64,000 nucleotides of DNA from Uloborus diversus (taxonomy: Eukaryota), in the NCBI RefSeq assembly GCF_026930045.1, contig NC_072731.1:137882156-137946155 (forward strand), read 5' to 3'. How positions within the stretch are numbered: the first letter of the stretch is position 1; every line of letters starts with the position of its first letter. Below the pieces are notes generated by a model. It saw only the letters and a program-made list of their open reading frames with translations, was not told where the DNA came from and searched no databases. This document shows positions 1 through 55,790 of this stretch, piece after piece. The translations under genes and the position numbers were made by a program.

Positions 1-910
1 TGTGTTTCGTCTGACTGTTTGAGGCTTTTCTCAAGTCAAATCTTAAAGTAACGTTTTTCCACAAGATTGGCTAAAAATAAATGAATTTAGCTGATCATTT
101 TCCATTTAAACGGAAATTAAATGTAATTAACGGTTTTTTTTATTATTATCATTTATGCGGATTGGATACTTACTCACTATCCAATCAATCAGCAGAAATA
201 TCGCCAAAATTTTTGCATAAAGATTCTGTAGCTGATGCATTTGGTAGTTTTTTCAACTGTCGCTGTTTTTGAAGCCAAAGGTTACGTAATAATGTTTCTC
301 AGCTTACACCATGTAAACAAAATATCGCCAATCAGAGAATCTTTAAAAAAAACTTTTTTATATACTGTGGAAAATAATCCAGCAACTAAATAAGGAAAAT
401 CCATAAAGAGCAAAAAAACTTCCATAAATTTTCATTTTTGCACAATTTCAAACAATCGCCAAATTTTATTACTTATTTTGGAAATATTTCGTATGAAACC
501 GTTTAGCGCCATTTTATTTTGACCAAAAATATATCTCAGCATCTGGCGACAATATTTCTATAATAAAAATTATTAAGAGGAGGGAGTATTATCGAAGGTG
601 TCCCAAAATGATTCTCGCAAATTTGGTAACATTTTAAACCGCACTAAGTGCCCACAATAATTGAAATTTCCCCCCAAAAAAAACTAAAGCAAGGGTAAGG
701 GGAACACGGGAGGCAACATTTTTTAAAACAGTTGGTACATCAATAGCCATACAGAGAAGATTTTAGATATAAAAAAAAAAGTACTAACAGATAAATCTTT
801 TTAAACATGTAAAGTTTAATTTCATATTTCGGAAATTCTTCAAATTTGTATACGCTTAGATGTCGTGCTTTCGTTTTTAAATGAATACTATTTTGTTCTT
901 TATACTTAGT
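1..910 (+). repeat. Dispersed repeat family R1, copy A; truncated by the window edge and uninterrupted
   Basis: Positions 1-313 align at roughly 80% identity with 20520-20856, e.g. 'ttttcaactgtcgctgtttttgaagc...caccatg'. Positions 307-890 align with 24815-25340, e.g. 'atatcgcc...cttccat.aatt...tttgcacaatttcaaacaat.gc'. It works as an uninterrupted paralog of the B+C copy. Confidence 0.75.
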
Positions 911-2399: not shown

Positions 2400-2960
2400 G
2401 CACCCGACGCATTCGGATCCCAAATGTTGGGGTCATCGAATGATAATGTAGAAATAAAACAACATTAGATGGATTAAAAATATGGAGATGTAGTGGGTGA
2501 TTAGTGCAAGGTTTTATTTTGAAGTGAAAAATTTAAAGAAAGTTTGAGACGTCTATTGTTTAGAGATTGTTCATGTGCAAGGATATATAAACTGTTGATA
2601 GGTTCGGAAGGCTCCTGTGCAGATGCGCATTGCCTGATTATGTATTGGGTCCAGGCCTTTAGATAGCTTTTCGCTGCAGAGCCATAAAGTTGGCATCCAT
2701 AATCGAGTTTTGAGCGTATAAGAGCCCTGTAGATTCTTTAAAGAGACTCTGTATCAGCTCCCCAAGAAGTTTTTGCTAAGACTTTAAGGATATTTAATTT
2801 CAATAAACATTTTTTTTCTTAGCTCTTGTATGTGCGGTATAAATTTAAATTTTTTATCAAGTGTAAGACGATCAAAAAGATGGAAATCAAAGGGAGGCAA
2901 GTCTGGATTGTGATGGGCGGACAGCATGCATCACGAACATCTGTACGCCTTTCTTCAAAG
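2400..2960 (-). mobile_element. Non-LTR retrotransposon (LINE) ORF2 C-terminal remnant, decayed
   Basis: The minus-strand translation gives '...LKVLAKTSWGADTESL*RIYRALIRSKLDYGCQLYGSAAKSYLKALDPIHNQALRICTGAFRT...'. This matches the conserved post-RT block of CR1/jockey/I-type LINEs (consensus IYRALIRSKLDYG..VYGSA.KS.L..LD.IHN.ALRICTGAFRTSP). Stop codons and frameshifts appear on both sides. Confidence 0.7.
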
Positions 2961-6600: not shown

Positions 6601-6899
6601 TAAGACAGGGGTTTTCAATCTGGAGAGGCACATAAAAAATCTGGCACAATTAGCAATAATAGTTCCAGAAATATTTAACGCTCTGTTATTCCTTTCGTTG
6701 CTAATTGCACTAGATTTTATGTTTTACCGAAACTATACAGAGCTAGTTTTCCTATCAAGCCTATTGCTTCCACTATTGATACAGCTTCTCATTGAGTTGC
6801 TAAATATTTGGTGTCAGTGTTTTCTCCTCTTAAAAGACAGAATTTATTCACAATAAAAAAGTTCTACTGTTTTGTGTTTAAAACACCCATAATTTCGGA

Positions 6900-7260
6900 C
6901 AAAATAGCTCTTTTATGGCTCCTTTTGATGTTAAATCCTTGTTCACTAACGTTCCGGTTGAGGGCTCTTTGGTACACCTTAAGTATGGATTTTTTGAATT
7001 TCATTTTGCCTGTAAGGAATTTGAGGAATTTATTTTTCTTACTTGTATCTGTTTAGAACAATGTTCTTTTGTTTTTAATGGTAAATTTTATGCTACGTCA
7101 GACGGTCTGGTTATGAGAAACCCACTTTTCCCCATTCTTAATGCCATTTAAATGCATTACATTGAAGTTAAGTTATTCCGAAAATTAGTTTCCATTTTAT
7201 GTTCGCTATGCTGATGACTGTTTCGTACTTTTGAGCAAAACAGTTCGTTTCTTTGTTCAT
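6900..7260 (+). mobile_element. Reverse-transcriptase domain remnant, most likely Penelope-like (PLE) or another non-LTR RT; frameshifted
   Basis: ORF 6915-7151 carries the RT motifs 'FDVKSLFTNVP' and 'FxFNGKFY...G..M..PL.PILN'. In a shifted frame, 7195-7225 encodes 'RYADDCFVL', the catalytic YxDD box. There is no intact ORF, so this is a pseudogenised TE. Confidence 0.7.
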
Positions 7261-9319: not shown

Positions 9320-9658
9320 TTTACTAATAATAAAGCTGAAAGTCTCTCTGTCCGGATCTCTGTCAGTCAGGATCTCTGAGACGCGCATAGCGCCCAGACC
9401 ATTCGACCGATTTTCATGAAATTTGGCACAGAATCAGCTTGTAGCATGGGGGTGTGCACCTCGAAGCGATTTTTCGAAAATTCGATGTGGTTCTTTTTCT
9501 ATTCCAATTTTAAGAACAAAATTATCATAAGATGGACAAGTAAATTACGAAATTATCATAACGTGGAACCGTAACATGGGCACAAGCCAATTGGCGAGAT
9601 ACGAAAATATCATAATATGGAACTGTAACATGGGTACAAGCCAACTGGCGAGAAAATT
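9320..9658 (+). repeat. Dispersed SINE/MITE-like repeat family R3, copy 1, with an internal 45-bp tandem duplication at 9555-9655
   Basis: 'tactaataataaagctgaaagtctctctgtc.ggat.tctgtc...gaccgattttcatgaaatttg...ggggtgtgcacctcgaagcgatttttcgaaaattcgat...tttaagaaca...ccataagatggac..gt.aattacgaaattatcat.acgt.gaaccgtaacatggg' recurs at 48701-49010 in the same orientation. Confidence 0.75.
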
Positions 9659-18289: not shown

Positions 18290-18600
18290 ATCTAGTTTGC
18301 TAGTAAAAAGTTACACCGTTTTCAGCGTCGGGTTTTGGGAGGAGGGGGGAAAGAAGTTGGTAAATTAGTAGTTTTTATCAGTTTTTCGGAAATATTTAGA
18401 AAACTATGGCGTTTAGAGCAAAAAGTGCAATATACAAAATATTCTACACTAAATTACGAACAAAATGGTCCTAAGCATTATTTTGTTTAGTGAACGGTTC
18501 CAGAGTTACAGAGGGTGTAAAAATAGAATTTTTTCGGATTTTTTTAGAAAAAATATTCATTATGAGTAAAGAAACTATTTTTTTTTGTATGAATTGTGTT
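18290..18600 (-). repeat. Dispersed repeat R9, left copy of an inverted pair with 28950-29240
   Basis: The reverse complement of 18290-18540 aligns at roughly 90% with 29020-29240 ('ctgtaactctggaac.gttcac.taacaaaataatg.tta.gaccattttgtt.gtaatttagtgtaga.tattttgtatattgcactttttg.gctaaacgcc.tagttttc.aaatatttccgaaaaactgataaaaactactaattt.ccaacttctt.cccccc...cccaaaacccgacgctgaaaacggtgt.actttttac'). Confidence 0.85.
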
Positions 18601-20519
18601 TTGTAACAGCAAATTACGATTTTAGGGGCCGGTGTTATGTTTGTGATAAGCCCTTGAAGGAACGACAACCTCATTGCCTACTTAAGGGGCTCTACTTTTA
18701 AGGGAAAAGTGGCTTTCACGGGCCGTGGCTTTATAAATCTGCGGCACGGAGAATCTCAAATTTTCTCTAGACAATGCAGGAATAAGAATGAATATATTTT
18801 CAACATAGATAATTTTAAAAGGTAAAAATGCGTAACAATTATGATTTATAATTATATCATTTTTAATGATAGCATTTTTATAAGTGCAGCTTTTGAAGAT
18901 TTTTCTTTAGAAAATAGGCATATTTGCCTGTATATTGCAACCATATTTTATCAAACTTTTTGAAGTTCGTAAACTGTGTCAATACTAATATTTAATAAAA
19001 ATGTAGAACGTTACATGCGACATACTGATGAAAGATATTCACAGTATTCAGTCCTCTTCAAACAAAGCACCGTCCTCTTCTAGATCATCGTCTATGATAT
19101 TAGCGTCCCTGTTAATACATCCTGGAACTGAGCAATTACTGCACATGCTTGAGCAGTTTAGACCAGTATTTCTGCACTCGTTAGTTATGGACGCATTTGT
19201 CTTTGCAAATGTACACTATGTGGGAAAGTAATTCCTGGGGAGCCTGCAGAACACATTGTTGTAATTGATCTGAGGTGTTCACCAATCTTCTTCCACCCCC
19301 ACTGGAGCAGATTCTTTTTCTCATCCAGCCACTGTTGGATCTGTTGTAGGGTTTATATGAATGCTGCATGGAAGCTGCTGAAAAAGGGGGGGGGGGGGGT
19401 AGTGCGGCCAACTGGAACATTGAATATATGGACTGCTTTACAATAGCCTGCCAGTAACACTGGTAGCAAAAGCTATCTAGATCTTCAGTATTCTATTGGC
19501 TTCAAACATCGCAAGAAGGAAATGCTTTCCTCCGTCAGCCCTTAGAGCACGAATTCAAATGGAGGGAGCAAATCCAATCATTGGCTTAGCAAAAAGTGAC
19601 CCAAAGACCCCAAGTCACGTGAGGCAACAACGACGAATGGTTAGCACGTTTTGCGTGAAACAAGCGAAAGAAACCTGATTTCTTCCACTGCTTTGCGTTA
19701 AAATCTATCACGTGACTTGGAGGTCTTGGCTTCATGCATGAAAGTCTTCACGCCCTCCATTTTATCTCTTCTCAATCCGTCAGCCACTGAACTGGGGTCA
19801 GCTAGAAGCTTCGTACGAAGAGCGCTGTTGGCTTGTACTTTTCTATACGGTGAAATTTTCCCCTTCTTGTAGATAGATGATACAGTGTCAAATCCTGTGG
19901 AGGCGTATTTTGCTAAGAGTACACCTTTCATATATTCAATGCCTCACTGAATGTCCGAGATAGTGTACAACTTTTCCTGCTGATTGCCTTTCTTTGGTAC
20001 CACAATTTTCAATTTGTGTGTGAACAGTCAACAAGACTAGTAAGTCCGTATCATCACCAATCACACAAGCTTCAGCCCCATTTTTAGCTTTACCAATCGC
20101 TGGTAAAATTTTACTACTATTATATATGCGAAAGTTTGTCTGTATGGATGTATGCATGTATGGATGTTTGTTACTCTTTCACGCAAAAACTACTGAATGG
20201 ATTTTGATCAAACTTTACAATAATACAGCTTATGCATCAGAATAACACATAGGGTAGATTTCGTCCCGTTATGGGGGGCAAAACCCCCTTAGGAGGGCAA
20301 TAAAACACAATTTTTGTATAAATTCTCTAATATGGGTATGAAAAAATACTTGCACATATTAACATTATATGTCCATCGAAAGCTCTGATTTTTCTGCTGA
20401 AGATGGCACCTTTTCGAAAATTCTAAGTATAATGAAAAACGAGTTATGAGCATTTTAGTTCCATGTTCGAAGGCTTTCCTCAACTCAATACAATATTTAG
20501 TGTATCATCTCAACTCTCT

Positions 20520-20856
20520 GTCGAAAGCGACTATTGTTGTATTGTTGACTATCTTTGCTTTTCGTGATAGTTCAAGGCTTTTCTCAAGTCATATCTTGAA
20601 GTAAGATTTTTGCACAAGATTGGCAAATAATACATGGATTTGGTTGATTATTTTCCATTTTAATGCAACTTTGAGGCAATTAATGGGGTTTTTTTAAATT
20701 TATTTGTGTTAACTGGATATTTAATTGATCAGCAGAAATCTAGCCAAACTTTTTTTGTGGAATCATTTCAATAGCTAAGGCACTTGGCATTTTTTTCAAC
20801 TGTCGCTCTTTTTGAAGCTAAAGACTAGGCAATATTGTTTCTAGGTTATCACCATG
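20520..20856 (+). repeat. Repeat family R1, copy B (5' part), ending at the TSD of an inserted element
   Basis: Aligns with window positions 1-313 and ends in '...ctaggttatcaccatg'. Confidence 0.8.
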
Positions 20857-23800
20857 CATGGCCCCACTGAATACTTAACGGCCGTGGCAATCGCTGAAAC
20901 TCATGGCAACAAAGAGAGCGCCACTGGCTACCCCTGTTTTTGTTTCCACTTGGCGTGATTGTGAGCGTTGGCGCTTTGGCATCTGTGAATACGTGATTTC
21001 TCGACTTATTGTCGGGCGTACGTCATTTGACGAAAATTTCAATTTCAAAAAAAGGAATGAAGAGAAAACGTGCTGAATAAACATTGTATTACAAAGGTGA
21101 AGAGCATTTCTTGTCATTATTTTAATATTATATCAAAAATTACGCGTAATAAAAAATTTTAACTAAACACAGAAAACATATGATTTTTTTAAATATTAAT
21201 GCGTAATTCTTAATATATTTTTTCAAACTTTTTTTTTTTTTTTTTGAAAGCTTTGAATAATTTTCAAATTTTTTATTGAAAATCCCTTGGGGTTTCCTTT
21301 TTGGATACAACAGTTCTAAGATTGATGATATATGGCAGGCAGCCCTCATTTCTAATTTTACATGCTCATTTAGATGCGAATTTTTTTTCTGCTCAATAAA
21401 TTACATCGAAAAAAAAAAAAAAAAAAAACACGCTCCGCAATCTGTAAATACATTCATTTCGCAAAACTTGAGAGGGTCATTCATTGCCCCTTTTGACCCT
21501 GATGAGGGTTAGAGGGGGGGGTTATAGGAATTTACGTTAACAATTGCCATTCTTTTCGCTCGTAATGTAGTGTATATTTTACAACGAACAGAATTTAATT
21601 AAAAATGTACGCTTGGGAACAAACAGGTCCGACATTTAAAAATTCGCGGGGGGGGGGGGGGGGGCAAAGGTTTTGTGTTCGGGAAAAAACAAGCATAATG
21701 CCTAATTTTAGTATGTTTGTAAAATTTAGGGGTGTCATAATTGCCCCCTCCCCCGTGATATCCCCACTTGACAGGCCTGGTTAGGAATATTCTTTTTCAA
21801 ATGAAGAAGAACAATAGAAAAGTTGAAAATATGATGGCAATTTGAGAAAATGAACCATTCACATAATTTTAAAAACATTTAAAATCAGAGTGTGACTAAT
21901 ACATGGTTCTACGACGGGTCCGTGGTTCTCGCACCAATATTTTACCGACACCAAAATAATGTCATTTATCTTTTCCCCCTTCCATTTTTAGCACATCTCA
22001 TGTTATAATAACTTTAGTGTAGATTTTAGTAGTATATTAGTGCACAATACGCATAGAGATGCACAAACGTTTAGTGCACAAGAGCTATTTCGAAAAAGTA
22101 CAGATTTTTTTCCTTACAAAAGGAAATTCATAGCATAATCAAAAAATAAATAAAAATAACATGGAGCTAGAAAAAACTTTCATTTTTCCGAAGCTTAGTT
22201 TTTAATTTTTTAAATGTCTGATTTTGAAAATAAGGCGTGGTCTTTATGACGTCACAAATGATGTATTTTGGCGCATCTGTCAACCGCGTTTCTACGTTAT
22301 GATGATCAAGAAGCGAATTACATATTGCACTCTACGCTTACTATCAATCATATAATTGCCAACACTTTTGAGTAAAGAAACTAATTGAATATTGAGCTCT
22401 GTGAGTGACATCAGTGAATGGCATTTCATCATTTGTGATGTCATCTGCAGAAGCGTAAACAATGAAAGCGCACCGATTAATGCATTATTTTTTAAATATT
22501 AAACTTAGTCAAGTTATTTTAAAAAATGGTCAAATCCTATGATTTTAAAAATGTTCTTTCAAAAAAAAAAAAAAAAAACCCTTAAAAATTTTCGCTCGTT
22601 TTATAAATAATTTTTATAAACTACACAAAAAAAAGTCCGCACAAAAACAGGTTTGAGTGTACATACACACATCGGAAGGCGCACAGACCGGAGAGCGTTC
22701 ACTTTAGTTCAGATTCTATCCCCACCCCCAGGCTCCCACCTTACCGTTAGCATCCCAGGTGCTATTACTTCAATATATTTTTCAATTGTTATAAAGTGTT
22801 CACGCAAATAATAATTTTTATGATAAAGGTCAGATTCGGCCATAAAATATTTATATTATTTACAGACTCATATTACCTATTCTAGAAAATCAACAGTCAT
22901 ATTATGACGGGTGCAAATTTCTTGGTCATTTCCATTTCATTCCATTTGTAGAAACAAGAAACCCAACGAGTAGGATCCTATTGCAATTCATGATCGTGAA
23001 TAACTTTATTCGAACTCAAGCAGCCAAAATTCAAATTATTATTATTTTTTAAAATTTATTTTTAACATTTAACAAATACATGCAATAGGGAAAGAAACTC
23101 CTCAAATATCTACACATGAATTTGTGAAACTAATTTAAAAAAAAAAATGTGGAACAGATTATTTTACAAAATATCAACACTGTTGATATTTTGTAAAATC
23201 CTAGCAGGGGAGAGTTCCGTACAAAATTTATTTTGTCCTTGCAAAAGCAAAACAATGATATGATTTTTTTTATTTGCCATTTTAAAGATATTTTTAAACA
23301 TACATTCGATTTGCGATAGCTCGAATGTAAAAAAGAAAGATGGAAAACTTCGACTTATCGAAAGTTTGACTTAACGATAGTTTTGGTTTTTGATATTTTA
23401 ATACTAAAAACCATCGAATGCTTTAATCTGTACATATAACAGACAAAATTATAGAACTTAAGTTTTTTAGCACAATATGCACAGTTTAATCAAATGTATT
23501 GATAGAAAAAAATCAAAAGCATGCTGGAACCGCTTGAATAGAGCTGATTCTACTTCAGGAAATGTGCACATCTTCGTTCGTTTCAAATTCGGATTCGAAA
23601 TGAAGGTGAAATAATTATTCTCCCATAGTCACTTCTTTCTTTCTTTTTTTTTTTTTCGTTCTTTCGAAATAAATTTCGAGTAATCCTGGAAAAAACTTCG
23701 AGTTGAAAGAAGTTAACTTCGAGTTATTTATAATAATTAGACTGGAATTAAAGACAAAAAAGTAGAGACTTGATAAAAAATTCGAGTTATAGTAATGTTT

Positions 23801-24814
23801 CGGACTTCGATTTATCGCAAATCGACTTTTTTTTTTTAAAAATTAAAATATTTAGCGATATAAAATCCTGTAAACATTGAATTCTAGTCATAAAAAAACT
23901 ATTTTCTACACTTGAAAAATGAATGAGAAAGGAGCTTTGAACTAGAAACTTTGTAAGACATTTGATCGCCAAGTTTGGCGAAAATTTGGATATGAATTTT
24001 CTGTTGGAAAAATAAAATACACACACGCAGTAGATCGTCAAGAATCCGCAGGAGTCTAAGATCTGCTTACAAATTTTTGTCATCTTCTTCTAATTGTATA
24101 ACATTAGGAGCAGCTCTAAATATCTAGCATTTCTTAAAATAAAAAAAGGGTGGCGAGGGGGGTAATTTTCCGTTATAGGTACGTAGTGGTGCATTTTTTA
24201 AGCTGGCGATTAGTTTCAATTTTATTTATTGTCATGGACTATTTCAAGTTACATATAAAGTACTTATTTGGCGATACCATGAACTATTTTGTCTTTTTAA
24301 AGACTTATAAGCGAAGCAAGCCTAGAAACAAAATCAAAAAGTCCATTAAAATAAAAAATAGTCCTCTGAATAATTAAGTTTCTCCATTAAGCGTAAAATA
24401 ATCCAACAAATGAAGCACAAACTATAAATGAGCATGTAAAATTAAATTAAAAGAAATTGCCAAACCAACTTTAGATGCTCAATTTACGTATTAAATAATC
24501 AGCTGAATAACATTACTGATTCGATTCGAATTGGTTGATTCGGTATATTTCTGAGCATCTTGCGAAATATTAATGTTTGTTTTCTGTTTCATTTATTAAT
24601 TAAAATAAACAAGCTTTGAAACTTGTCGTTGATTGGTTGATGCAACCGTGGCTTGTGGCGCCTCCTTGCGGTCAGAATGGGCAAACATGAAGTTTTGAAG
24701 TTTTTCCATCTAGTGTGGCCATGTTCAAGTGCAGGAATAGTTGCCCCGGTTTAACACAGGAAAGTCAAAAATTGTCAAGGCCTGGTAAGCGCCAGCGCAT
24801 TCAGTGGGGCCATG
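20857..24814. mobile_element. Non-autonomous DNA transposon of 3958 bp with perfect 16-bp TIRs ('catggccccactgaat') and a 7-bp TSD ('caccatg'), inserted into an R1 copy
   Basis: The left junction reads 'tatcaccatg|catggccccactgaat' and the right junction reads 'attcagtggggccatg|caccatgtaacc'. The uninterrupted paralog at 301-320 reads 'cttacaccatgtaaac' with a single 'caccatg'. There is no ORF over 100 aa inside. The element contains a G18 run and a 19-bp inverted repeat ('atgacgtcacaaatgatg' at 22243 and 22427). Confidence 0.8.
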
Positions 24815-25340
24815 CACCATGTAACCAAATATCGCCATTTCTTTAATATTTCTTTCTTTAAATTTGTTAACACGTAAAGTAATTCGCCAACTAAATTAAG
24901 CGAATGCATAAAGAGCACAAAAACTTCCATTAATTTGTCTTTGCACACAATTTCAAACAATTGCTAAGTTTTTACTGTTTATTGGAAATATTTCGCGTAG
25001 CATCATTTTATAATCACCAGAAGTACCTCTGTATTTGGCGACTCTCTTTCTTCGATGAAAATTAGTAACACACAGTTTTAGGAGGGAGGAGGAGTCTCAT
25101 TTAAGGTATCCCAAAACGATTAACGCAAATTTAATAACATTTTAAATCGCAGTAAGGGATTACGGGCAGCTACACTTTTTAAAAGTTTGTACTTCAATAG
25201 CAATATAGAAAAGGTTTTAGACTATGTTAAAAAAGAAAGAAAAAAAGATAAATCTTTTTAAACAAGTGAAGTGTAATTTTTTATTTTGGAAATTCCTCAA
25301 ATTTGTATATGCTTAAATATCGTTTTTTCGTTTCTAAAAG
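24815..25340 (+). repeat. Repeat family R1, copy C (3' part), starting at the TSD
   Basis: Aligns with window positions 307-890. Confidence 0.8.
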
Positions 25341-28261
25341 AGTGCTATTTTTACTCTGGTAAAATAGTACTCTGGTGCAATGGTATTTTTACTCTGAACT
25401 TTTTCGTATTGTAATCAGGACCGTTTACGTTATTTAGAAACAGTTGATTTCCTTCTGGTGGAGATTTTAATGGTTTGATGTTCTGACTCTAAAGGGACAT
25501 TATTAGAATCAGGATTTATAGTGATTGTTGACCCTTTTACGGGACGATTTCTACGGTAAGAAAATATACATTATATAATAATTTAGATTTCCGGTGTAGC
25601 GCTGGATGTTATGTATTTGACGGAGATCGGGATTATAAGGGAACTGTTTTACTTTATTTAAGAATAGTTGACCTTACTCGAATTGGATTTTTTTAGAATT
25701 ACCCAAACTAACTTCTTTACAACTCCTGTACGTTTTCAAGATTTATTTTGTGTGATTTTTTGAGTGTCTTCCAAGTTTCGCCGACATTTCATTTATCTCC
25801 CTTCCCTCTGATTTTCAGTTTTAATCATACCTTTTGATACATTTAAGGGGGCAAGCAATTCGAAATGTCATCGAAACTAGAGACAAACAATTTTTCGGTA
25901 ACTATTTGATCTCTGCTTGTAATGACCATTAACTTGAATCAATTGAAAAAAAAAACTACATCAACGTGAGCGAAGCTGCGGGTAAAAGCTAGTTATTAAT
26001 AAGTTTGCGTCATCCGATGCTTGATGAACTGTGCAACCGCCTCTTTGCAAGTGTATTGTAAGGAGAGAAATAAGGCCAATTTTGTCCTTAGCGTTAGCTA
26101 GAAATTCCCTTTGGTTGATTGTTACATCGATTGAGTCGAATTGAGTCGAAATTTCAATATTGAAACTTTGAACAGCGGCAACCCTATGATTGGAGGACTT
26201 TTGCTTAAGCCAGGGGCGGCATTTCAGCATTTCATTTGGGGGGTCGAGTTTCTTTAATATGTATTACCACAGTGCGGTCCCAAACACACATTAGGTAACA
26301 GGAAGTAGTCAAAAAATTGGTTTAATACGAATAAAAATTAGTGTTTAGAAACAATTAAAATTTTGATTCACTTTCTAATAAGTTACCATACAAAACATCT
26401 CGATACTAAAGTTTTTATACCTTTTGGAAAAGTTTTAGTGCATGATTTTTGGAATTCGGGAGAGCAGGGAATCGTGTTACTAATTTATCAGTGCCCAGTG
26501 CCGTTGTGTTTTGCCAGTACAGCTAAATAGATTTTTTTTTTTTTTTTTTTTTGGCCCATTGTGCTTTGAAAATAAGTCTCTAATCTCCTGAGACAAAAAA
26601 AAAAATCTTTCTCTGCTAGTTGAGCTGATTGGAATAGTTAAAAACAATTAAAGCGAGTTATTATTAAGAGTTTTCATAAAACAAAGTTATGTATGAAAAC
26701 TCTTTTTATATCTTGCTCTTCAAAATCACTCAGGCAGCTTCAAAAATTGTTAGGGGCTTAATTTTTCATCATTGAATAATCTAGTCTCGTGGGCGCTCTC
26801 AGCTTCAATGAGACGTCATCTGCCTCCATCCCTGTTATTCACTATTTCAGACTGATGAGTCCATTACAAGGACAAACTGCAGTCTCTGGATGTGATAATC
26901 AGTTTTTAGGTACATTGCTTGTAATTATTCCTGCCTCATGCTAAAAATTTTACTCATAACTGAAACATTTTATTTTTCGTTTTCAAAATCCAATCCAGAT
27001 AATATAGAGCCAACCATACAGAAAAATAATTATCATCAAATCTTGTGTTAATTTCATTCAAAACTGAATCTATTACTTCATACAAAATATTGAAAAATCA
27101 ATGCTTGACTTCACATCATCATGTGGATTTTTGTCACTTTTTTTTTTTTTTTTTTTTGCGCCTTTTTAAAAGTGGCTAGGAGGTAGATTTTTTTTTTTTT
27201 TTTTTGAAAAGTTTCACGATGGATTGAAATATACATCTATGTAAAATCCATTTTCAGTTTCAATTATAGATTGAACTATAGTAGTATGGTGCACAGATCA
27301 ATGATAGATTGAACTGTGGTTTGAATAGTCCGAAAATTAAGCGTAGCGGATTGAAGATGTTTTGATAGAGTAAAGCATTTTTCAAAAACGTTCTTCAATA
27401 CAAACAAATTGAATAAAAATTCAAACGAAGTCCATACATGAAAAAGGGCATGAGCTTTTTCACCATTGAAAGAATCCTTTTGCAATAATTCTTCCAGTCG
27501 TCAAATCACTGCTTTGAAGTTATAAAGAAATCTTTTTATGGTTTTAACTCTTGAAGACCATCTTGTGTCACTCCGAGATTGCATAATTATAGAGCCTCAT
27601 AAAAGGTATTTGTTGATATGTTTTTTTATTCAATAATCACACGCATTTTTAAGAAGTTTCTATGAAAGCATATAATGCATTGAGCAGCTGAAACGTGTTT
27701 CTAGCAGAAGAAAGCGATGAACACTCAATAAACCATACACTTAAAAAATGAGCTTATACACTTAAAAAATGAGCGTAAATGTGAATGTAAAATATCAAGG
27801 AATTTTCTTACGAAAACCTTGCAGCCACACCACTTTGCACGAGTCTCTTATATTGGACACACCATACTGGGCACAGAAGTATGAAATATTTAGCCTATAT
27901 GAGGAAATGTCTTCTTTAGTTAAAATTAACCATGGTTCTTTATCAATTTTCTCTGTTTTGAAAGGGCCGGAAAATACTTCATGAATTTCTAAGTCATCAT
28001 ACAAATAACGAAAAACCCTTTTTCCAGTCTGAAAATGTGTTGAGAGTTTCATCAAATAGTTACTAAGAACCAGCGAGATTTTTTTTTTAATGAACATTGA
28101 TTTCCGACTCACATAAAATGAATTCACCCATTTTCTCTCATTCTGCTCAAAAAATTTGGGGGTGCGACCGCCCCCTCTTGACCCCCCTATTTGCCGCCCC
28201 TGGCTTAAGCAACCCTATACCATCGGTTTTTGTAATATTTTTATTTTCCTTTTTTTTACAT

Positions 28262-28860
28262 AACTTATATGGAAACTCGAGGAGGGTAAATTACCCATTT
28301 TTGGGCACTTTTTAGCCATTGGCAAGCTTGATTAGTACACACGCAACAGATAGGCAACCTTACTTTAACGTTTTCTTGACAAATTTTACTCTTCATTAAT
28401 GACAACAATTTTTGGAAACTCGATGAGGGTAAATTACTCATTTTTGGCCACTTTGTAACCTCTGGCAACCATTCTTAGGGACCGGAAAAGTAGGCAACCT
28501 TTCTTTACTGTTTTATTTACAGCTTTTACTTTTCATTTATGACAACGTTTTCCGGAAACTTGATGAAGGGTGAATTATCTCCCTTATTGAAAACCTTTTA
28601 CCTCCTGACAAGCTTGATTAGGGAGCCAAAAAAGGTTGGCAACCTTAGTTTAGCGTTTTATTTCCATCTTTTGCTCTTCCTTTATGGTAACGATTTTCGG
28701 AAACAACTCGATGAGGGTAAATTACTCATTTTTAGGCACCTATTAACCCCTGGCAACTCTGATTAGTTCACGTGAAAGAGGTAGAAATTCTTACTTTCAT
28801 ATTTTACAACTTTTACTCTTCATCTATGGTAACAATTTTAGGAAACTCGATGAGGTAGGT
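28262..28860. repeat. Satellite of ~140-bp units, about 4.3 units
   Basis: The repeated unit is 'ggaaactcgatgagggtaaattactcatttttgg.cac.tt...aacc.ctggcaa.c..ttgattag......aggcaacctt.ctttaacgtttt.tt...cttttactcttcat.tatg..aacaattttt'. Confidence 0.85.
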
Positions 28861-28949: not shown

Positions 28950-29240
28950 TTATTTATGTTTACGTAGTAGTTAAAATTTCATTTTTCCAAAAAATCTTAA
29001 AAATGCGAAAATTTTCTACTTTTACACCTGCTGTAACTCTGGAACGGTTCACGTAACAAAATAATGTTTAAGACCATTTTGTTGGTAATTTAGTGTAGAT
29101 TATTTTGTATATTGCACTTTTTGTGCTAAACGCCGTAGTTTTCAAAATATTTCCGAAAAACTGATAAAAACTACTAATTTTCCAACTTCTTCCCCCCCCC
29201 CTTCCCCCCAAAACCCGACGCTGAAAACGGTGTTACTTTT
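28950..29240 (+). repeat. Dispersed repeat R9, right copy of an inverted pair with 18290-18600
   Basis: See the evidence for 18290-18600. Confidence 0.85.
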
Positions 29241-30339
29241 TACCAAACAATGTGTGGACAGTATACAACAATTTAAAATTGACAGGAAACTTTTACTTTG
29301 GATGTTGAGGTTTATGTCTAATTGCACTGTACTACAACCACGGTGTTTGAAAATTCGGCGATGGTAAATTTTTTAGTTTTGAGGGTCAATTAACAATATC
29401 CAATAGCCAAAATATGAAAATTTAATAGGTTGCAACTTCCCTATTACTATTGGTTCGCGAATCCTCTCGAAAATAAGTGCTTTGGCAGTCATATGAGATG
29501 TTGTTAAGCGAGAGGTGTCAATAAATGAATACATCACCGGGTTTATGGGAGACGTAGTTTGGTGTGTACCGGTGATGGAAATATAGGTTCTAGAACTCTA
29601 ATAGGTTTTTCTGGAAAGCCGTTAAAATAAAAAAATATATATTTTGGGCAAAAAGAGGAAATGCTAGTTAATTACCAGAGGGGACATGGACGCTCCCCCT
29701 TACGTCCATATTCGGCTACATCTTTGGGTAACTAAATAAACCTCTCGAGTAGTTTACTTCTCGAATAATTCATTCGCAGGGGTACCACCGGGTGGGAGGG
29801 GAGGAAGAATCATAACGCAAACTTCAGTATTGTAATTTTTCGGGGATGTTTGAGATTTTCGTGGAGGGCCCTTTCGCGATATCCTTGTGTGTGGAGGGAG
29901 GGAGTTCGGATGGTTTTATCATTAAATGATTGTTTCTTGCGTGTTTCATTCATCATTCGATTATGGTTATAACGGAATGTTCGGTGTCGAATTTTCGATA
30001 TCTTGACTGTAATTTCTTCGTGAGGGTAGCCACGAGAGGATAGGCGTGATGCCGCAAAAAGCTGATTAAAATATTCATGGATTTCAGTCCATATCGTGGG
30101 ATTTTCGCTCTTGTGGGAGAGTTTGGAAGGAGGTGCGCCATCGCTCTCAGGAAGGGATGGGCGCAGCTGTCACCCAAATTATTCAAAAATGAATTAAGTT
30201 CTTCTCCAGTGTTTTATTCGTATGAGGTTTTAACGGAATGTTTATTGCCAATGTTTGGTAACCTGTTAATCGAATGATTTTTTTAGGACGAAATTGTTAA
30301 TAAAGCAGATTAAGGGGTTGGTGGGGAGAGGCATAGTCT

Positions 30340-47699: not shown

Positions 47700-48700
47700 C
47701 TCCTTCTCGGACTTTTTTCTCGGACGTAAGATTTTTCAAACCCTTCTCCTCTATTCTTACGTAAGATTCCATTTCGTTTTTCTATAGTGCCTAGAAAGAG
47801 TAGTGTGCCGATCGACGGGGGAAAGTGAGGTCAGATCTGAGGAAAATCCAGATCGCGCTGCGCTCGAGGAGTACGTTATATGTTCCTCAATCAGACAGAC
47901 TCGTTTTAAATCTGCGATTGCATGCTGATTTCGCAGTAAAAGCCCCGTTTTTCGGATTGAACTTATTTCTGCGCAAAGGACAAATTCTGTATTAAGTGCT
48001 ATTTATTACATGGGTGTTCATTTATTTTTTGAAGAATATAAAATTACCTTATGCTAATTTATCTTCAATGAAAATAGTAGAATATAAGGGGCCATTCATT
48101 AAATACGTAAGGGTCCCGAGGGGGAGGAGGGTTGGAAAAGCCTCTACGTACCTTGGGGGGCGGGGGGTCAAACTCATTTTTACATAATATTTTCCAAGTC
48201 GGTATTTCACATTAGAAATTGCGCGGTCAACAAGTGATTTGGCAGAGATTATGTTCCATTTGCGTCTGGAAGGTAAGAAACGTGTTAGGATAAGATGTTT
48301 TTTTTATATGTTTTACAAAGAATGAATAGTGTAAAATATACTAAAAGAGTCGCATTGTGTATGACATGTTTTATTTTTAATTAATATTACATCAAAAAAA
48401 AAAAAAAAAATGTCGAAAAAAAACAGTTTAGATTCTAACTTTTCAGTAACTATTTCTTTACGCAAAAGGTTTAATTTAATAATGTGAATTTAATAACGAT
48501 TACAGTGATGTAACGACTCCAAGATTTGTTATTTTATCATTTTGAAAAACAAAATGGAATCTTACGTAAGAATAGGAGGGGGGTTGGTGAAAAATCTTAC
48601 GTATCCTTACATGGGGGGAGGGGGATCAAAAATTGCCAAAATCATCCTTACGTAATTAATGAATGGCCCCTAAGTATTCCAATAACTGCGCGTCTCTTAT
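47700..48700 (+). repeat. Left block of a complex inverted-repeat family (R4) with palindromic 'ggggccattcattaa.tacgta.ttaatgaatggcccc' heads and 'cttacgtaag' motifs
   Basis: 48085-48400 aligns with the reverse complement of 52400-52720, roughly 75-80% over about 300 bp. 47778-47900 aligns with the reverse complement of 52160-52308 ('ctatagtgcctagaaagagtagtgtgccga'). 48556-48625 is the reverse complement of 47715-47775. 48640-48680 is the reverse complement of 48085-48125. Confidence 0.8.
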
Positions 48701-49010
48701 TTCTCTACTAATAATAAAGCTGAAAGTCTCTCTGTCTGGATTTCTGTCTGGATCTCTGTGACGCGGACAGCACCTAAACCGTTTGGCCGATTTTCATGAA
48801 ATTTGATAAAGTTGGTGTGTAGCTCGGGGGTGTGCACCTCGAAGCGATTTTTCGAAAATTCGATTTTGTGTTTTTTTTTTTATTTCAATTTTAAGAACAG
48901 TTTCCGGAGCAAAATTACCATAAGAGGGACGAGTTAATTACGAAATTATCATGACGTAGAACCGTAACATGGGAAGAGCGAATGAACATAACCAATTGGC
49001 GAGAAATTCG
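48701..49010 (+). repeat. R3 SINE/MITE-like repeat, copy 2
   Basis: See the evidence for 9320-9658. Confidence 0.75.
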
Positions 49011-49935
49011 GATTTTAAAAGGCTGAAATTAAAAAAAAGAAAAGAAATTTTAAATATAACTTACGTGCTCGTTGATTCCTTTTGTCCGAAAGTCTTATGG
49101 TCGGTCGCTAACAGTTACCAGGCTTAGCGTTGCTGGAGATTTCCAACCTATTCTCCAGACCTATAAACTGTAGAGGTGGTGCTACCATATACCGTGCCCA
49201 AGTCGGGCTCTTTCTCATTTAGGGGCCTCATTGACTCAGGAGTCGCTCCTTTCTACTTTAAACTCATGCTGGCTACATGAATAGGGCTTGAGTCTCCCAA
49301 GTGGCATTAAAAACAACAACAAACTGCGTCCTTAGTCATCTCGACTGATAATACATTTGCCTTAAAATATAAGCATCAGATTTCCAGTCAATTGTGTAAA
49401 ATTTTGTTTTGAAAACATCCTTGTCTTTGTGTCTACTTCAATAATGATCTTTTTATCGTTAATATTATTTTCCACATAATTTACATTATATACAAAAACT
49501 ACAATATTTGGAGATTTTTTAAATTTTATACAAACCCAATATTCGTTAGGCAAATTAATATGAACAATTTCATTTATAATAGACTAGTTGCAAAACCCGG
49601 CATTGCTCGGGTTAAAATACATTGCATGTTTAATGGTACATAAAATATTTAAGAATTCTCTTTTTAACATAGATAATATAGATTTCTATTTTAAATATTG
49701 AGAGACTTAGTCGACCATTAAACATGCAATGTATAGAGAGTATAACAAATTAATTAACTAATTAATTAATTGAAATTGAAATAATTATAAGTTAAAATAC
49801 GAAACATCTTAGTAAATTGAAAAGTTATGTTTTATTTTCATAATTATTTACATTCTATATTGAACATACAACATATAACAAATCTTAATATATATATAAT
49901 GCTAATGTGCGTACGTAAAGACAGGATTTTCTCTA

Positions 49936-50214
49936 TCACCACCAATTTTGACCTTGAACCTTAAAAACCGGACTGAAATTTTCTTCATGGCATATTAATG
50001 AAGCTCCAAATGAAGTCAATTGAAAACAACAGTTGTATCGACATATATTTTGTAGAAAATGATTAGAGTCTGGTGTTTTTCCAGTCATATATTCGACTAA
50101 TTGTGGTGGTAGTGCATCTAATGCCGATAAATTGACTTTACCACTAGAGCAGCACATACCAGCAGTTTCGCCTTTAAATTTCTGAGCATGGCAATACTCA
50201 CATATCGTATTCAT
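49936..50214 (-). mobile_element. Helitron Rep/Hel N-terminal (Helitron_like_N) fragment
   Basis: The ORF translates to 'CEYCHAQKFKGETAGMCCSSGKVNLSALDALPPQL...FLQNICRYNCCFQLTSFGAS'. This carries the CxxCxAxxFxxExxxxCCxxGKVxL zinc-finger-like motif and the IRxYNxxFxFTSxG motif typical of eukaryotic Helitron Rep N-termini. The Arg-rich upstream stretch is decayed and no helicase follows. Confidence 0.6.
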
Positions 50215-50643
50215 TTTTTCGATGACAATGTTTGGATGTTCACTGTACTGTTTTTTGCAATCATAACTGGAAGCCTGGAGTTCTAAACTGCTTAATTGAT
50301 GTGTAGCAGCTCGTCGTTAGCGTAAAGCAGACATTCTTTCGTTTTTTCTTCTATTTTTCAGTTCACGTTGATCGGCAGATTAACGATTTCTTAGTGATCT
50401 CACTCGAGATCGGGTTTCTTCATTAGTATGTGCTCTTTCCTCTTCAGTTACATTTTCTCTATTTTTTTTACTCCTTTGCGAATAGTCGAAAGACGTTGTT
50501 CTCCTGTTTCTGTTTGACGCGCTACTTTTTTCTTTTTGAATCCAGTTTAGGTTTTGAAAATACTTTCATTCGTCTTGGCATTGTAAATATAAACAGTGTA
50601 ATATGATTACTCAAAACTCATATCTGGATTGGTACACGAAGAT

Positions 50644-50900
50644 AAAGCTACCAAAAAGTCACTGACTTTCGGTTTATATACCATCGAATATTGAAATTTC
50701 TAGTACCAGAACAATCTGGAATAACCAAATAGTTTGTTATTTCTCACTTGTCAAAATCACTTGAATTTATATGATCACTGTTCACTCTTGACTCAATTAA
50801 TCTTTGCGCGACTGTAAGCACGATTCAACTGACGAAAAGTTATTGACTTTTGGTTTATATACTATCGAATATCGAAATTTCTAGTACCAGAACAGTCTAG
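50644..50900 (+). repeat. Two direct copies of a ~68-bp motif about 190 bp apart
   Basis: 'aaagt.a.tgactttcggtttatata.catcgaatat.gaaatttctagtaccagaaca.tct.ga' occurs at 50644-50712 and at 50835-50900. Confidence 0.8.
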
Positions 50901-51460
50901 AAGATTACAAATAGATCTTAGCAGTTGTCCACGTTTTAGAACTACCTAGATCATTCTAAATTTTTTTAGAACGTTCTAGATCATTCTGGATATTTCTAGA
51001 ACCTTCTAAGTCGATTATAACGTTCATAGACGTTTTGCAACTTTCTAGATCATTCTAGAACCTTTTAGAACTTTCTAGATCATTCTGGAAATTTTTAGAA
51101 CCTTCTAGAACATTCTAAGTCGATTATAACGTTCACAGACGTTTTGGAACTTTCTAGATCATTCTAGAACCTTTTAGAATTTTCTAGAACATTCTAAGTC
51201 GATTATAACGTTCACTGACGTTTTGGAACTTTTTAGATCATTCTAGAACCTTTTAGAACTTTCTAGATCATTCTGGAAATTTCTAGAACTTTCTAGAACA
51301 TTCTTAGTTGATTGTAGCGTTTGCGCATGTTTTGGAACTTTCTAGATCATTCTAGAAATATTGAGAATCTTCTAGAACAATCTAGATCGATTGTAACAGT
51401 TGCACACATTCTGGAGTTTTCTAGACTATTCCTAAAATTTTATGAACTTTCCCGTAGTTC
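50900..51460. repeat. Satellite built from ~20-bp 'ttctagaacattctagaacc' subunits arranged in ~80-110-bp higher-order units, about 6 units
   Basis: The unit 'acattctaagtcgattataacgttcacagacgttttggaactttctagatcattctagaaccttttagaa.tttctaga' repeats. Confidence 0.85.
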
Positions 51461-52149
51461 TCATAAGTTAGAAAAGGACAGATATACTTTTTCACATTTT
51501 TGCCACCCACAACCACCCACTTCCACCCACAGCGACCAAACTCCCTTATTCCTACCAGGAGACCAAGGGGTGCTTACCACCCCAAGCAGAAGTTGATTGG
51601 TATTGGTGGTGATAGAGAAAACCCTGTCTTTACCTACGCACATTAGCATTTTATATATATATATTAAAATAAGATTAAGATTTATACGTGGTTATTTCAG
51701 TTTCATCTGCGGAATGATCAAGTTTTATTTTTTTGAAACAGGGAACATTTTTCTTAACTGCATAATTCCTGATGGACCTTTTCTTTGGTAATTTTTTTGT
51801 AAAGTATGTTGGCAGATTTGGGAAAATTGTCGGAATGGCCTCATCTTTCAAAAAAGTTTTCCCCGAGGAATCAAAACTTCCTCACCATTTATAATATGCT
51901 TAAAATGCGTTTCATTAAAATGTTTTTCGAAATGCAGAGCACAATTGAGCAATATTTATCAAAAACTTTATCTAACCTGGGAATTAACGAGTTCCACTTT
52001 AGTTTTTCTTCATCTGCTGGAGCTTTAAAAAGCGTAACTTTTTCCTTATGTGTTTTGTACTCACTTTCAACTTTGATGCCTCTATTAAAAGCCTTGAACG
52101 CTTGTTTCATGAAATATTCACGAAATAAAGGTAAAAAAGAGAAACGCGG

Positions 52150-52720
52150 AACTAAATTGTAACAAAATCCCGCGTCTACTAATGTAAACACCGCGAAATT
52201 GAACGTGCACCTCGACTGCACTGCCATCTAACGGTTTCATACAATTCGTCTTCAAGAATCGCAGGGAAAAAAGCGCCGGTCGGCACACTACTCTTTCTAG
52301 GCACTATAGTTTTTCAAAATGCTGTTAGAAAAGGATAAGTTACACAAAAACTCCCAGTTTGACATAAATCAAAGTGTATTATTTCTCAAATATATTATAT
52401 GATGCAATACTAATTAAAAATAAAAAATACCATACAAAGCGCGATTCTTTTATTATACTTTACACTATTCATTCTTTGCAAAACAAGTAAAACGTAATAT
52501 TTTTTTACCTTCGAGACGAAAATAAAATATGATCCCTGCCAAACCAATTGACCACGCGATTTCTAATAAAAAATATCAACTTGGGAAAATATTGAAAAAA
52601 ATTGGATTTAACCCCCCCCCCCCCCCACCCTCACCCAGCCAAAGTAAAGGTATGTAGAGATTTTTCTAATCCTCCTCCCCTTCGGGACCCTTACGTAATT
52701 AATGAATGGTCCCTTATTTC
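52150..52720 (-). repeat. Right block of the R4 inverted-repeat family (mirror of 47778-48400)
   Basis: See the evidence for 47700-48700. It ends in a C16 run (52613-52628) and a palindromic head 'cccttacgtaattaatgaatggtccc'. Confidence 0.8.
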
Positions 52721-53939: not shown

Positions 53940-54690
53940 TCCAATGGGGGGTCATGGGGGTCATGACCCCCCCCCCCCTTAGCCAGACCAAACATTACAC
54001 AACAGGGCCTTTTTAATCTTCCTGTTACTGAATTTTTCGAAGGAGAAATTGAGGACCACCCAGTTTGTGAACAAATTTAAATTATATCCAAGCACAAAAT
54101 TATGGGAAAGGGGGGGGGGGGACAAGTGTGGGTCAAGAGGGAGGTCATGGGGTCATGACCCCCCCCCCCCCTAGCTAGACCAAACATAACCCAACAGAGC
54201 CTTTATAATCTTCCAGTTACATATTTTTACGAAAGAGAAATTGAGGATCACCCACTTTATGAACAAATTTAAATTATATCCAAGTGCAAAATTAAGAGGG
54301 GGGGGAGGGGCAAGTGTGGATCCAGGGGGGGGCATGGGGATCATGAGCCTACTCCCCTTAACCAGATCAAACACTACCCATCAGATCCTTTTTATTCTTC
54401 CAGTTACAGATTTTTTCGAAGGAGAAATTGAGGATCACCCAGTTAGTATAAAAAATTTAATTATATCCAAGCGCAAAATTTACGGAGGGGAAAGGCGTGG
54501 GTCCAAGAGGGGGGGGGGATCATGAGGGTCATGACCCCACCCCCCTTAACCAAACCAAACATTACCCACCAGATCCTTTTTAATCTTCCAGTTACAGATT
54601 TTTTTCGAAGGAGAAATTGAGGATCACCCAATTTGTGTATAAATTTAAATTTTATCCAAGCGCAAAAATAGGGGGTGGGGGGAAGCGTTT
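53940..54690. repeat. Satellite of ~188-bp units, 4 copies, with palindromic 'ggtcatgacc' cores flanked by G/C runs
   Basis: The unit is 'gtgggtc.aagaggg...tcatgggg.tcatgacccccccccc.ttagc.agaccaaacat.acc.a.cag.gcctttt.aatcttccagttaca.atttttcgaaggagaaattgaggatcacccagtttgtgaacaaatttaaattatatccaag.gcaaaatt'. ORF 54241-54525 is an artefact of it. Confidence 0.85.
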
Positions 54691-55388
54691 TTGTATTTAA
54701 ATTAGAAAGATTTTCGTGCTGAGAGCTCTGGCTTTAAGCAGTTTTGAAGCAGCATATTGCAGTTATATATAGACTGCAATGCATATCTCAACACAAAATA
54801 CTTGGTACCTCTAAAAAACGATGTAGAGGCTTTGCTTGAAAAAAAAAGTAAAGAGGGGGTGGAGCAGGGGTTAAAGTAATTTTTATTGGATATTTATAAA
54901 CAAATTCTGGCAAATAGGTTTTTCTTTAAAAACCTGGAATTACTTCTTGGATTTTTTTTTAAATTATTTTTTTTTTTTTTAAGTGGAATATATTGTTTGA
55001 ACAGATCATTGATAAACCTCTATTGCGGTTACATCTATATTTGCACATAAACAATTAAAATATTCGCAAAAGAGTTGTTTTGCGGAAAATAAATTTCTTT
55101 AAGTGTGCGTAAAACAGTGAAACCTCGCTTAACGTACACTCCTCATTTCGGACTTTTTTTTTTTTAATTTCCTCCATTTTCTAGGATTAAAACATTAAAT
55201 TTCCCTTTATTAAAGTGGAGACTCTCAAACTCGGTCACGGATACAACTTTTCTTGTAAAAAGGATTTTTACTCTCATCAAAACGAACACTCTTCGACAAT
55301 TTTGGCTAAATGTGTTTAGTTTTCTATCTTAAAGCATTTTTGCCGCAAACTCTGCTAGCAGGTAATAATAACGTAGTTTTATACAAAA

Positions 55389-55790
55389 GTGAGGGATTTT
55401 TATAAAGGACTTTTGCCAGTTAATACATCATCGCTGCAAGTTGAATATCAACTGTGGGTCGCGAAGTGGAGACGGGAAAAGAATCAAAATCCAGTTAAAG
55501 ATTTCCCTCCATGTATCATAAAACTTATCGAAGAATGTGACAAGGACATGTATCCTGGAATAAATTGCCTTCTTCGACTCATAGCTACATTGCCATTTAG
55601 TATTGTCACAAGTGAGCGAACCTTCTCGACATTGCGGCGTTTAAAAACCTGGTTAAAAGCCTCAATGTGTGAGGAATGCCTTGTGGGACTTTCTCTCTTA
55701 AATATCCACAGAGACATTGATGTAAACATTGACCACATAATCACTAGATTCGCAAAGAAGTCGAAAAGGAAGTTAAACTTTGTCTTGTGA
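55389..55790 (+). mobile_element. hAT transposase C-terminal dimerisation (hATC) domain remnant; the N-terminal part is absent
   Basis: The ORF begins with GTG. It carries 'LLRLIATLPFSIVTSERTFSTLRRLKTWLKASMCEECLVGLSLLNIHRDIDV', which matches the hAT family C-terminal motif (…SERxFSxLxxxKTxLRxxMxxERLxxLxLLxIHxD…). The frame is closed by a stop 15 nt upstream. There is no BED or RNaseH-like region in the upstream 3 kb. Confidence 0.8.

Follow-up and report, generated by a model that had tools for sequence, protein, structure and literature searches.

In the genome of Uloborus diversus, a stretch of 64,000 nucleotides (contig NC_072731.1, positions 137,882,156 to 137,946,155 of the forward strand; hereafter the window) holds two copies of a repeat, here designated R1, one of which is split by 3958 bp with inverted ends. 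The locus raises the question of what kind of element entered this repeat and which transposase would have moved it. An earlier note, made from the letters of the window alone, had seen in it a young, non-autonomous DNA transposon of a possibly under-described family. We find the element to be a non-autonomous class II transposon bounded by terminal inverted repeats (TIRs). With a probability of roughly one half, it would have been mobilised by a transposase of the P superfamily, from a family other than that of a second TIR element in the same window.

Boundaries of the insertion and the empty target site

The element occupies window positions 20857-24814. Its left TIR reads 'catggccccactgaat' and has its exact reverse complement at 24799-24814, and a perfect heptamer, caccatg, flanks both ends as a target site duplication (TSD). 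All coordinates given earlier for this insertion into R1 check out, as do the TIR (16/16) and TSD (7/7) matches. Pairing between the two termini ends after nucleotide 16 on the inner side, with no longer imperfect TIR, and reaches 2 nt outward into the TSD, so that an 18-nt inverted repeat results (TGCATGGCCCCACTGAAT / ATTCAGTGGGGCCATGCA, i.e., TGCATGG.../...CCATGCA). Regarding the expected frequency of such structures, the TIR 16-mer with up to three mismatches was seen four times in the window, compared with 0.19 expected, and none of 100 shuffles reached four. A window-wide scan for inverted repeats (12 nt or more) directly bordered by a flush direct repeat (5 nt or more) yielded three candidates, compared with about 0.2 per shuffle. 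A relaxed window-wide scan for TIRs with TSDs returned only noise level outside this element and the second element. The pattern of TIRs with a flush TSD is not due to chance.

The uninterrupted R1 copy near the start of the window (copy A, Table 1) carries the heptamer once and was found to be without an excision footprint. Copy A (positions 1-1300) was compared by BLASTN with the interrupted locus after removal of the element and one heptamer, which gave a single unbroken alignment through the junction (363/482 identities), reading '...CTTA-CACCATGTAAACAAAATATCGCC' against '...GTTATCACCATGTAACCAAA-TATCGCC'. When the intact locus was used instead, the match to copy A ended exactly at 20856 and was picked up from 24876 onward. 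The two halves of the interrupted copy are thus colinear with copy A, the break had been placed correctly, and the use of copy A as an internal control for the boundaries is borne out. The joint presence of TIRs, a TSD and a paralogous site lacking the element identifies the locus as a cut-and-paste DNA transposon insertion, and that the element is a TIR transposon insertion is close to certain.

The R1 copies have diverged by 20-24%, and no substitution is found among the 46 paired TIR and TSD bases of the element, a count compatible with a divergence of at most roughly 6%. That the insertion is more recent than the split of the R1 copies is certain. Regarding its description as young, the part that stands is this relative age; a young absolute age is plausible and loosely bounded by the 6%.

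The interrupted R1 copy, together with the element, is enclosed by a 245-bp inverted pair of 90% identity (18303-18543 and 28999-29243, 10.5 kb apart). The pair has no obvious TSD and could represent a short repeat present twice or else form the TIRs of an element of about 10.9 kb. One fragment of an open reading frame (ORF) lies on each side of the interrupted copy, at 19939-20178 (-) and 25964-26263 (-). Neither has a Pfam match, but they share the motif '...(G/S)DD(T/A)(D/N)LL(V/I)...' (GDDTDLLVLL and ASDDANLLITS) and may be part of a larger repeat unit that includes R1.

Anatomy of the element and the case for the P superfamily

The element ends on the left in about 170 bp, and on the right in about 195 bp, that are rich in guanine plus cytosine (GC). 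Several short motifs are concentrated in the two terminal 200-bp stretches, namely CATGGC (four occurrences, compared with 0.06 expected), GCGCCA (four, compared with 0.10) and GCCAC (five, compared with 0.30). GTGGC is over-represented at both ends, and CCGTGGC occurs once near each end, which accounts for two of its six occurrences in the window. These subterminal motifs are presumed to be transposase-binding sites. Further inward, a perfect 20-nt inverted repeat stands out when 700 bp from each end are compared (E = 2e-4); one reading is a sub-terminal inverted repeat, the other the TIR of a nested 3.09-kb element with TA at its flanks. No coding capacity was detected: the longest ORF in the element measures 98 amino acids, and translation in all six frames gave no Pfam match even at E up to 1. 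The earlier statement that the element encodes nothing is therefore upheld, and with it the consequence drawn there that the transposase would have to come from elsewhere in the genome.

The same window contains a second TIR element, which bears on the source of such a transposase. Its TIRs (29 bp) and its TSD (7 bp) are perfect, and a decayed THAP exon with two frameshifts lies close to its right end (Table 1). The THAP domain was joined from three frame pieces (52110-51952, 51952-51851 and 51851-51762) and then scored 32.7 bits (E = 1.3e-7) against a Pfam cut-off of 23.9, compared with only 17 bits for an unguided join. The reconstructed domain is 50% identical (E = 6e-39) to an intact THAP protein (P0004), the relatives of which include proteins from Dermacentor, Hyalomma and Ixodes; with the THAP ORF in an Ixodes scapularis element it shares 42% identity. 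In all three tick loci, a TNP-like RNaseH_N, a GTP-binding insertion (GBD) and RNaseH_C, the core of a P-element transposase, come after the THAP ORF. The catalytic part is absent from the copy in the window.

The 5' TIRs of the tick loci (TACGGTGGCTAGAAGG, TACCGTGGCTAGAATA and TACAGTGGCCAGAAGG) share the conserved start form TAYNGTGSCYAGAA. Their starts match the TIR of the second element at 11 of 14 positions, and on this comparison they are clearly homologous to it. In the Ixodes copy both TIRs are present (34 bp, 94% identical), and its flanks, CCTTGGA and GCTTGGA, match at 6 of 7 positions; searches for a 3' TIR at the Dermacentor and Hyalomma loci left 5' TIRs only. The second element is a bona fide member of the P superfamily and has a 7-bp TSD, from which it follows that P-type transposases making 7-bp TSDs were active in this genome in the past.

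Within the second element, ORFs at 49939-50565 (-) contain ...CEYCHAQKFKGETAGMCCSSGKVNL... and have no Pfam match; we take them to resemble the zinc-finger-like part at the N-terminus of Helitron Rep/helicase proteins. A tandem array with units spaced 79/109 bp occupies 50641-51447. A dispersed repeat about 220 bp long (9363-9580 and 48743-48973; 83-88% identity) also has one of its copies within the second element.

Table 1. Coordinates of the interrupted repeat, the 3958-bp element, the second TIR element and the tick loci (window positions, except for the tick loci)
Feature	Position	Strand	Remarks
R1 copy A, uninterrupted	22-894	+	
Unoccupied target site caccatg, single, in R1 copy A	307-313	.	
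R1 copy B, 5' half of interrupted copy	20575-20856	+	76% identity to A 22-313
Left TSD caccatg	20850-20856	.	same as 24815-24821 and the single copy 307-313 in the R1 paralog
Left TIR CATGGCCCCACTGAAT	20857-20872	+	complementary to 24799-24814, 16/16
Left subterminal region	20857-21030	+	GC 45-57%; CATGGC, CCGTGGC, GCGCCA/TGGCGC motifs; TGGC about every 20 bp
Interior, non-coding, AT-rich	21031-24619	.	about 31% GC; homopolymer runs T17, A20, G17, A18
Internal inverted repeat, perfect 20 nt, left arm TAATTTTACATGCTCATTTA	21353-21372	+	497 bp from left end
Internal inverted repeat, right arm	24425-24444	-	371 bp from right end
Right subterminal region	24620-24814	-	GC 40-62%; CCGTGGC, GTGGC (3 copies), GGCGCC
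Degenerate internal TIR copy CATGGCCACACTAGAT	24708-24723	-	13/16
Right TIR, reverse complement of CATGGCCCCACTGAAT	24799-24814	-	
Right TSD caccatg	24815-24821	.	
R1 copy C, 3' half of interrupted copy	24822-25351	+	about 80% identity to A 314-894
Second TIR element, P superfamily, 4526 bp	47783-52308 (with TSDs 47776-52315)	-	outside the 3958-bp element, 23 kb away
Second element, TSD GTTTTTC, perfect 7 bp	47776-47782 and 52309-52315		
Second element, TIRs TATAGTGCCTAGAAAGAGTAGTGTGCCGA, perfect 29 bp	47783-47811 and 52280-52308		
Second element, decayed THAP exon, two frameshifts	51762-52110	-	about 200 bp inside right end
P-superfamily locus, Ixodes scapularis	L014 7763-12095		
P-superfamily locus, Dermacentor silvarum	L013 7786		
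P-superfamily locus, Hyalomma asiaticum	L015 7786		

The canonical P TIR starts with CATG, as does that of the 3958-bp element, although CATG is the only part that the latter shares with the P TIR of D. melanogaster. The core of the tick TIRs, C(C/G)GTGGCT, reappears as CCGTGGC near both ends of the element; the motif was picked post hoc, and as a sign of P kinship its recurrence is only a lead. In the P superfamily, a 7-bp TSD is the norm in two of the three families, 1360 and Galileo, and 8 bp in P itself, the overall range being 7-8 bp and rarely 9 (PMC3698922, PMC4168063). The 7-bp direct repeat of the element falls within this range, with the caveat that 5 or 3 bp would also be possible. 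P elements carry sub-terminal inverted repeats (PMC3698922, PMC4168063); candidates for corresponding features here are the perfect 20-nt inverted repeat, which could instead derive from a nested element, and the motif clusters at both ends. MITEs (miniature inverted-repeat transposable elements) of the P superfamily keep about 100-260 bp of the ends of their master around unrelated AT-rich DNA (PMC1562414, PMC3698922), and the short TIRs, GC-rich ends and AT-rich core of the element amount to the architecture described for such P-derived MITEs. The second element raises the prior for the P superfamily without establishing membership.

Several points weigh against assignment to P. The TIR of the element matches that of the second element at only 7 of 16 positions, with YAT.G at the start as the only shared part, and that of the Ixodes element at 5 of 16, and no subterminal similarity to the tested P elements was found. 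Under the Repbase rule, a non-autonomous element is assigned by its termini (positions 1-11, at most one mismatch) and an equal TSD length (PMC4455052); agreement of this kind was not found with any of the P elements compared, i.e., the second element and the tick elements. A single copy is at hand, and no autonomous relative was found in the window or in viral and metagenome collections. The TSD length is not unique from one copy, since 5 or 3 bp also fit. Furthermore, 7-bp TSDs and CA...TG termini are known outside P, in hAT7 and Kyakuja (PMC12730594), subterminal repeats of GTGGC type had at one time been suggested for hobo and Hermes, two hAT elements (PMC10368747), and hAT elements occur in this genome.

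Regarding further copies, BLASTN searches of the 64-kb window with the whole element and with both ends yielded low-complexity matches only. A TIR-like site at 19937-19952 (three mismatches) was dismissed as a chance match, as its flanks are without similarity. The TIR 16-mer gave seven matches in viral contigs, and the TIR followed by four degenerate bases gave two in metagenome contigs. These, too, were rejected as relatives and attributed to chance, given their GC-rich, prokaryote-like flanks and the lack of similarity past the 16-mer.

Length of the target site duplication and rival superfamilies

The empty site in copy A is obtained from three parsings of the insertion, with a TSD of 7 bp (caccatg), 5 bp (accat) or 3 bp (cca) and a TIR that starts with CATGG, GCATGG or TGCATGG, respectively. 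This is because the heptamer starts with CA and ends with TG, which prolongs the inverted repeat. By our own calculation, the base coincidences needed amount to 1/16 for 7 bp, 1/64 for 5 bp and 1/256 for 3 bp, so that 7 bp is most likely, by about 16:4:1 over 5 and 3. The earlier statement of a 7-bp TSD is right in that the direct repeat is perfect, whereas its exact length is an estimate that leaves room for 5 or 3 bp.

Under a true TSD of 5 or 3 bp, the TIR would measure 17-18 bp and the element would find its home in a superfamily with short TSDs, e.g., hAT5 or Transib (5 bp) or PIF/Harbinger, CACTA, Zator or Academ (3 bp). The 18-nt inverted repeat, which overlaps the duplicated heptamer, speaks for this possibility, as do the agreement of all three parsings with the site seen at 307-313 and the fact that TG...CA termini, too, are common among DDE elements. 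Transib elements characteristically end in CACNGTG and CACTA elements in CACTA, and PIF elements have the target TWA; the termini found here are unlike any of these. The shorter lengths also call for more coincidences between flank and terminus, as calculated above, and palindromic outer TSD bases are usual for symmetric transposase dimers (PMC4168063). The TSD of the second element likewise has palindromic outer bases (G.....C). We therefore regard a TSD shorter than 7 bp as distinctly unlikely.

Among superfamilies, hAT offers the strongest competition to P, in the form of a non-autonomous element of a 7-bp TSD lineage (hAT7-like) driven by a BED-finger hAT transposase encoded elsewhere. Lineages of hAT with TSDs of 5, 6 and 7 bp have been described (PMC12730594), and Repbase contains hAT families whose annotation reads '7-bp TSD' (PMC4455052). 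A 16-bp TIR, dissimilar ends and clustered subterminal short repeats are typical of hAT anatomy (PMC10368747), and the GTGGC in which both ends are rich was once put forward as the hobo/Hermes subterminal repeat (PMC10368747). GTGGC was nevertheless rejected here as a diagnostic hAT signature, as the proposal for Hermes has since been revised to AAGT (PMC10368747). The window itself holds an intact 137-codon ORF at 55377-55787 (+) with a hAT C-terminal dimerisation domain (Pfam E = 7e-7), the best database relatives of which are only 55% identical. Matching hAT termini were not identified for this ORF in the window, and this sole hAT remnant is without a TIR-like match to the element.

Termini of hAT elements follow YARNG (CAGNG or TAGNG), whereas the element starts with CATGG, with T at position 3, where a purine is expected. 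The described hAT7 families, which share 7-bp TSDs and short TIRs with the element, differ from it in that they are fungal, known from rust fungi, and encode a hAT transposase (PMC12730594), and most animal hAT elements make TSDs of 8 bp (PMC10368747, PMC12730594). A length of 7 bp fits hAT only through such minority, hAT7-type lineages, and we consider a hAT origin unlikely.

The earlier note had taken the combination of a 7-bp TSD with a CATG terminus as not obviously fitting a textbook superfamily and had given 8 bp as the TSD length of P elements. The latter is correct for P itself and incorrect for 1360 and Galileo, which make 7 bp (PMC3698922, PMC4168063). The former is not supported, as 7-bp TSDs are made by 1360, Galileo, hAT7, Kyakuja and the second element. 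Dada-type elements, which the earlier note had mentioned, are excluded. Although Dada elements make TSDs of 6-7 bp, they have no TIRs and insert at fixed positions into multicopy small-RNA genes (PMC3706591), whereas here perfect 16-bp TIRs are present and the target is an interspersed, non-genic repeat. Rfam and tRNA scans of the 64-kb window were empty. With TIRs present and no RNA gene in the window, membership of Dada is effectively refuted. Kyakuja (KDZ) combines a 7-bp TSD with CA..TG termini, both of which would fit, but these elements are fungal and lack TIRs (PMC12730594), and membership was rejected on account of the 16-bp TIR.

An undescribed superfamily with 7-bp TSDs and CATGG termini, or a deeply divergent P- or hAT-like branch sighted here for the first time, appears very unlikely. 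Two observations would suit it: the termini are without a relative in the viral and metagenome searches, and the TIR cannot be aligned with the P TIRs compared. However, this is absence of evidence only, from collections that are viral, metagenomic and prokaryotic, and each structural feature of the element is already covered by P or hAT. Equally unlikely is the corresponding mechanism, in which the transposase of such a lineage would read the CATGGCCCCACTGAAT termini and the subterminal CATGGC/CCGTGGC sites and make 7-bp staggered cuts at CA...TG targets.

Proposed mobilisation, known counterparts and surroundings

R1 was an older dispersed or duplicated repeat, and after its copies had diverged, a non-autonomous cut-and-paste (DDE-type) transposon entered one of them. 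The transposase made staggered cuts at the target CACCATG, with a stagger of most likely 7 bp, and gap repair duplicated the target on both sides. In cis, the element would need only its 16-bp TIRs and the GC-rich, motif-dense ends of about 170-195 bp, which are probably bound by the transposase; the approximately 3.6 kb of unrelated AT-rich DNA between them would serve as filler. Mobilisation would take place in trans and depend on a transposase gene at another place in the genome, the likeliest source being a P-superfamily transposase with an N-terminal THAP domain and a TNP-like RNase H domain into which a GTP-binding segment is inserted.

Counterparts of such an element have been described as BuT5 in the Drosophila repleta group and as AgaP-MITEs in Anopheles gambiae. 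Like the element, they are without coding capacity and combine short TIRs with conserved ends of about 100-260 bp and an unrelated AT-rich interior; they also have sub-terminal inverted repeats, for which the 20-nt inverted repeat is the candidate equivalent here, and are mobilised in trans, as would be the case here (PMC3698922, PMC1562414). Their TSDs, however, measure 8-9 bp, compared with most likely 7 bp in the element, and the element is, at 3958 bp, much longer than P-MITEs of about 0.2-1 kb and the 2.4-kb AgaP8MITE2450. In contrast to BuT5 and the AgaP-MITEs, its putative sub-terminal inverted repeat is set back from the ends by 370-500 bp, and the link to these elements is one of analogy.

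Galileo and 1360 (Hoppel/ProtoP) of the Drosophila P superfamily, compared by description, also make 7-bp TSDs, and many of their copies are non-autonomous, like the element. Their targets have palindromic outer bases, e.g., GTANTAC for Galileo (PMC4168063), as does the target in R1. The hosts differ, and the TIRs of Galileo are very long and foldback-like, compared with 16 bp here. The second element shares its TSD length of 7 bp with the 3958-bp element and, together with its tick relatives, also the motif C(C/G)GTGGC. The second element, which resides in the same genome, also shares the general form of the terminus, YA(Y)RG. The TIRs of the second and the tick elements (TAYNGTGSCYAGAA..., 29-34 bp) differ from the 16-bp CATGGCCCCACTGAAT, and the second element retains a THAP remnant, whereas the 3958-bp element is without a coding trace.

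The 3958-bp element is an ordinary transposon and not a sign of an unknown family. As an insertion with its own empty-site control, its boundaries are fixed to the base, which makes it a good seed for a repeat-library entry. The more useful by-product is that P-superfamily elements with 7-bp TSDs have been active in this genome, as directly demonstrated by the second element, which links the genome to a clade of P elements that have TAYNGTGSCYAGAA termini and, in three tick genera, encode transposases of the THAP plus TNP-like type. If it is true that a P/THAP9-like transposase mobilises the family of the 3958-bp element, this family would be the second P family in this genome; if the family does not belong to P, it would point towards a lineage for which arthropod catalogues are poor. 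The current understanding of transposons would not be overturned in either case.

Elsewhere in the window, ORF fragments at 2504-2737 (-) and 6882-7148 (+) contain RIYRALIRSKLDYGCQLYGSA and FMAPFDVKSLFTNVP, respectively. They have no Pfam match at E up to 0.01 and look like pieces of reverse transcriptases, of non-long-terminal-repeat (non-LTR) or Penelope type. Tandem arrays are located at 53957-54686 (units of about 190 bp, four copies) and 28270-28855 (units of about 143 bp, three to four copies). The whole window has a GC content of 34% and a CpG observed/expected ratio of 0.9, long G/C homopolymers and microsatellites of the (TA)n/(CA)n type being frequent in it, and looks like repeat-rich intergenic or intronic DNA.

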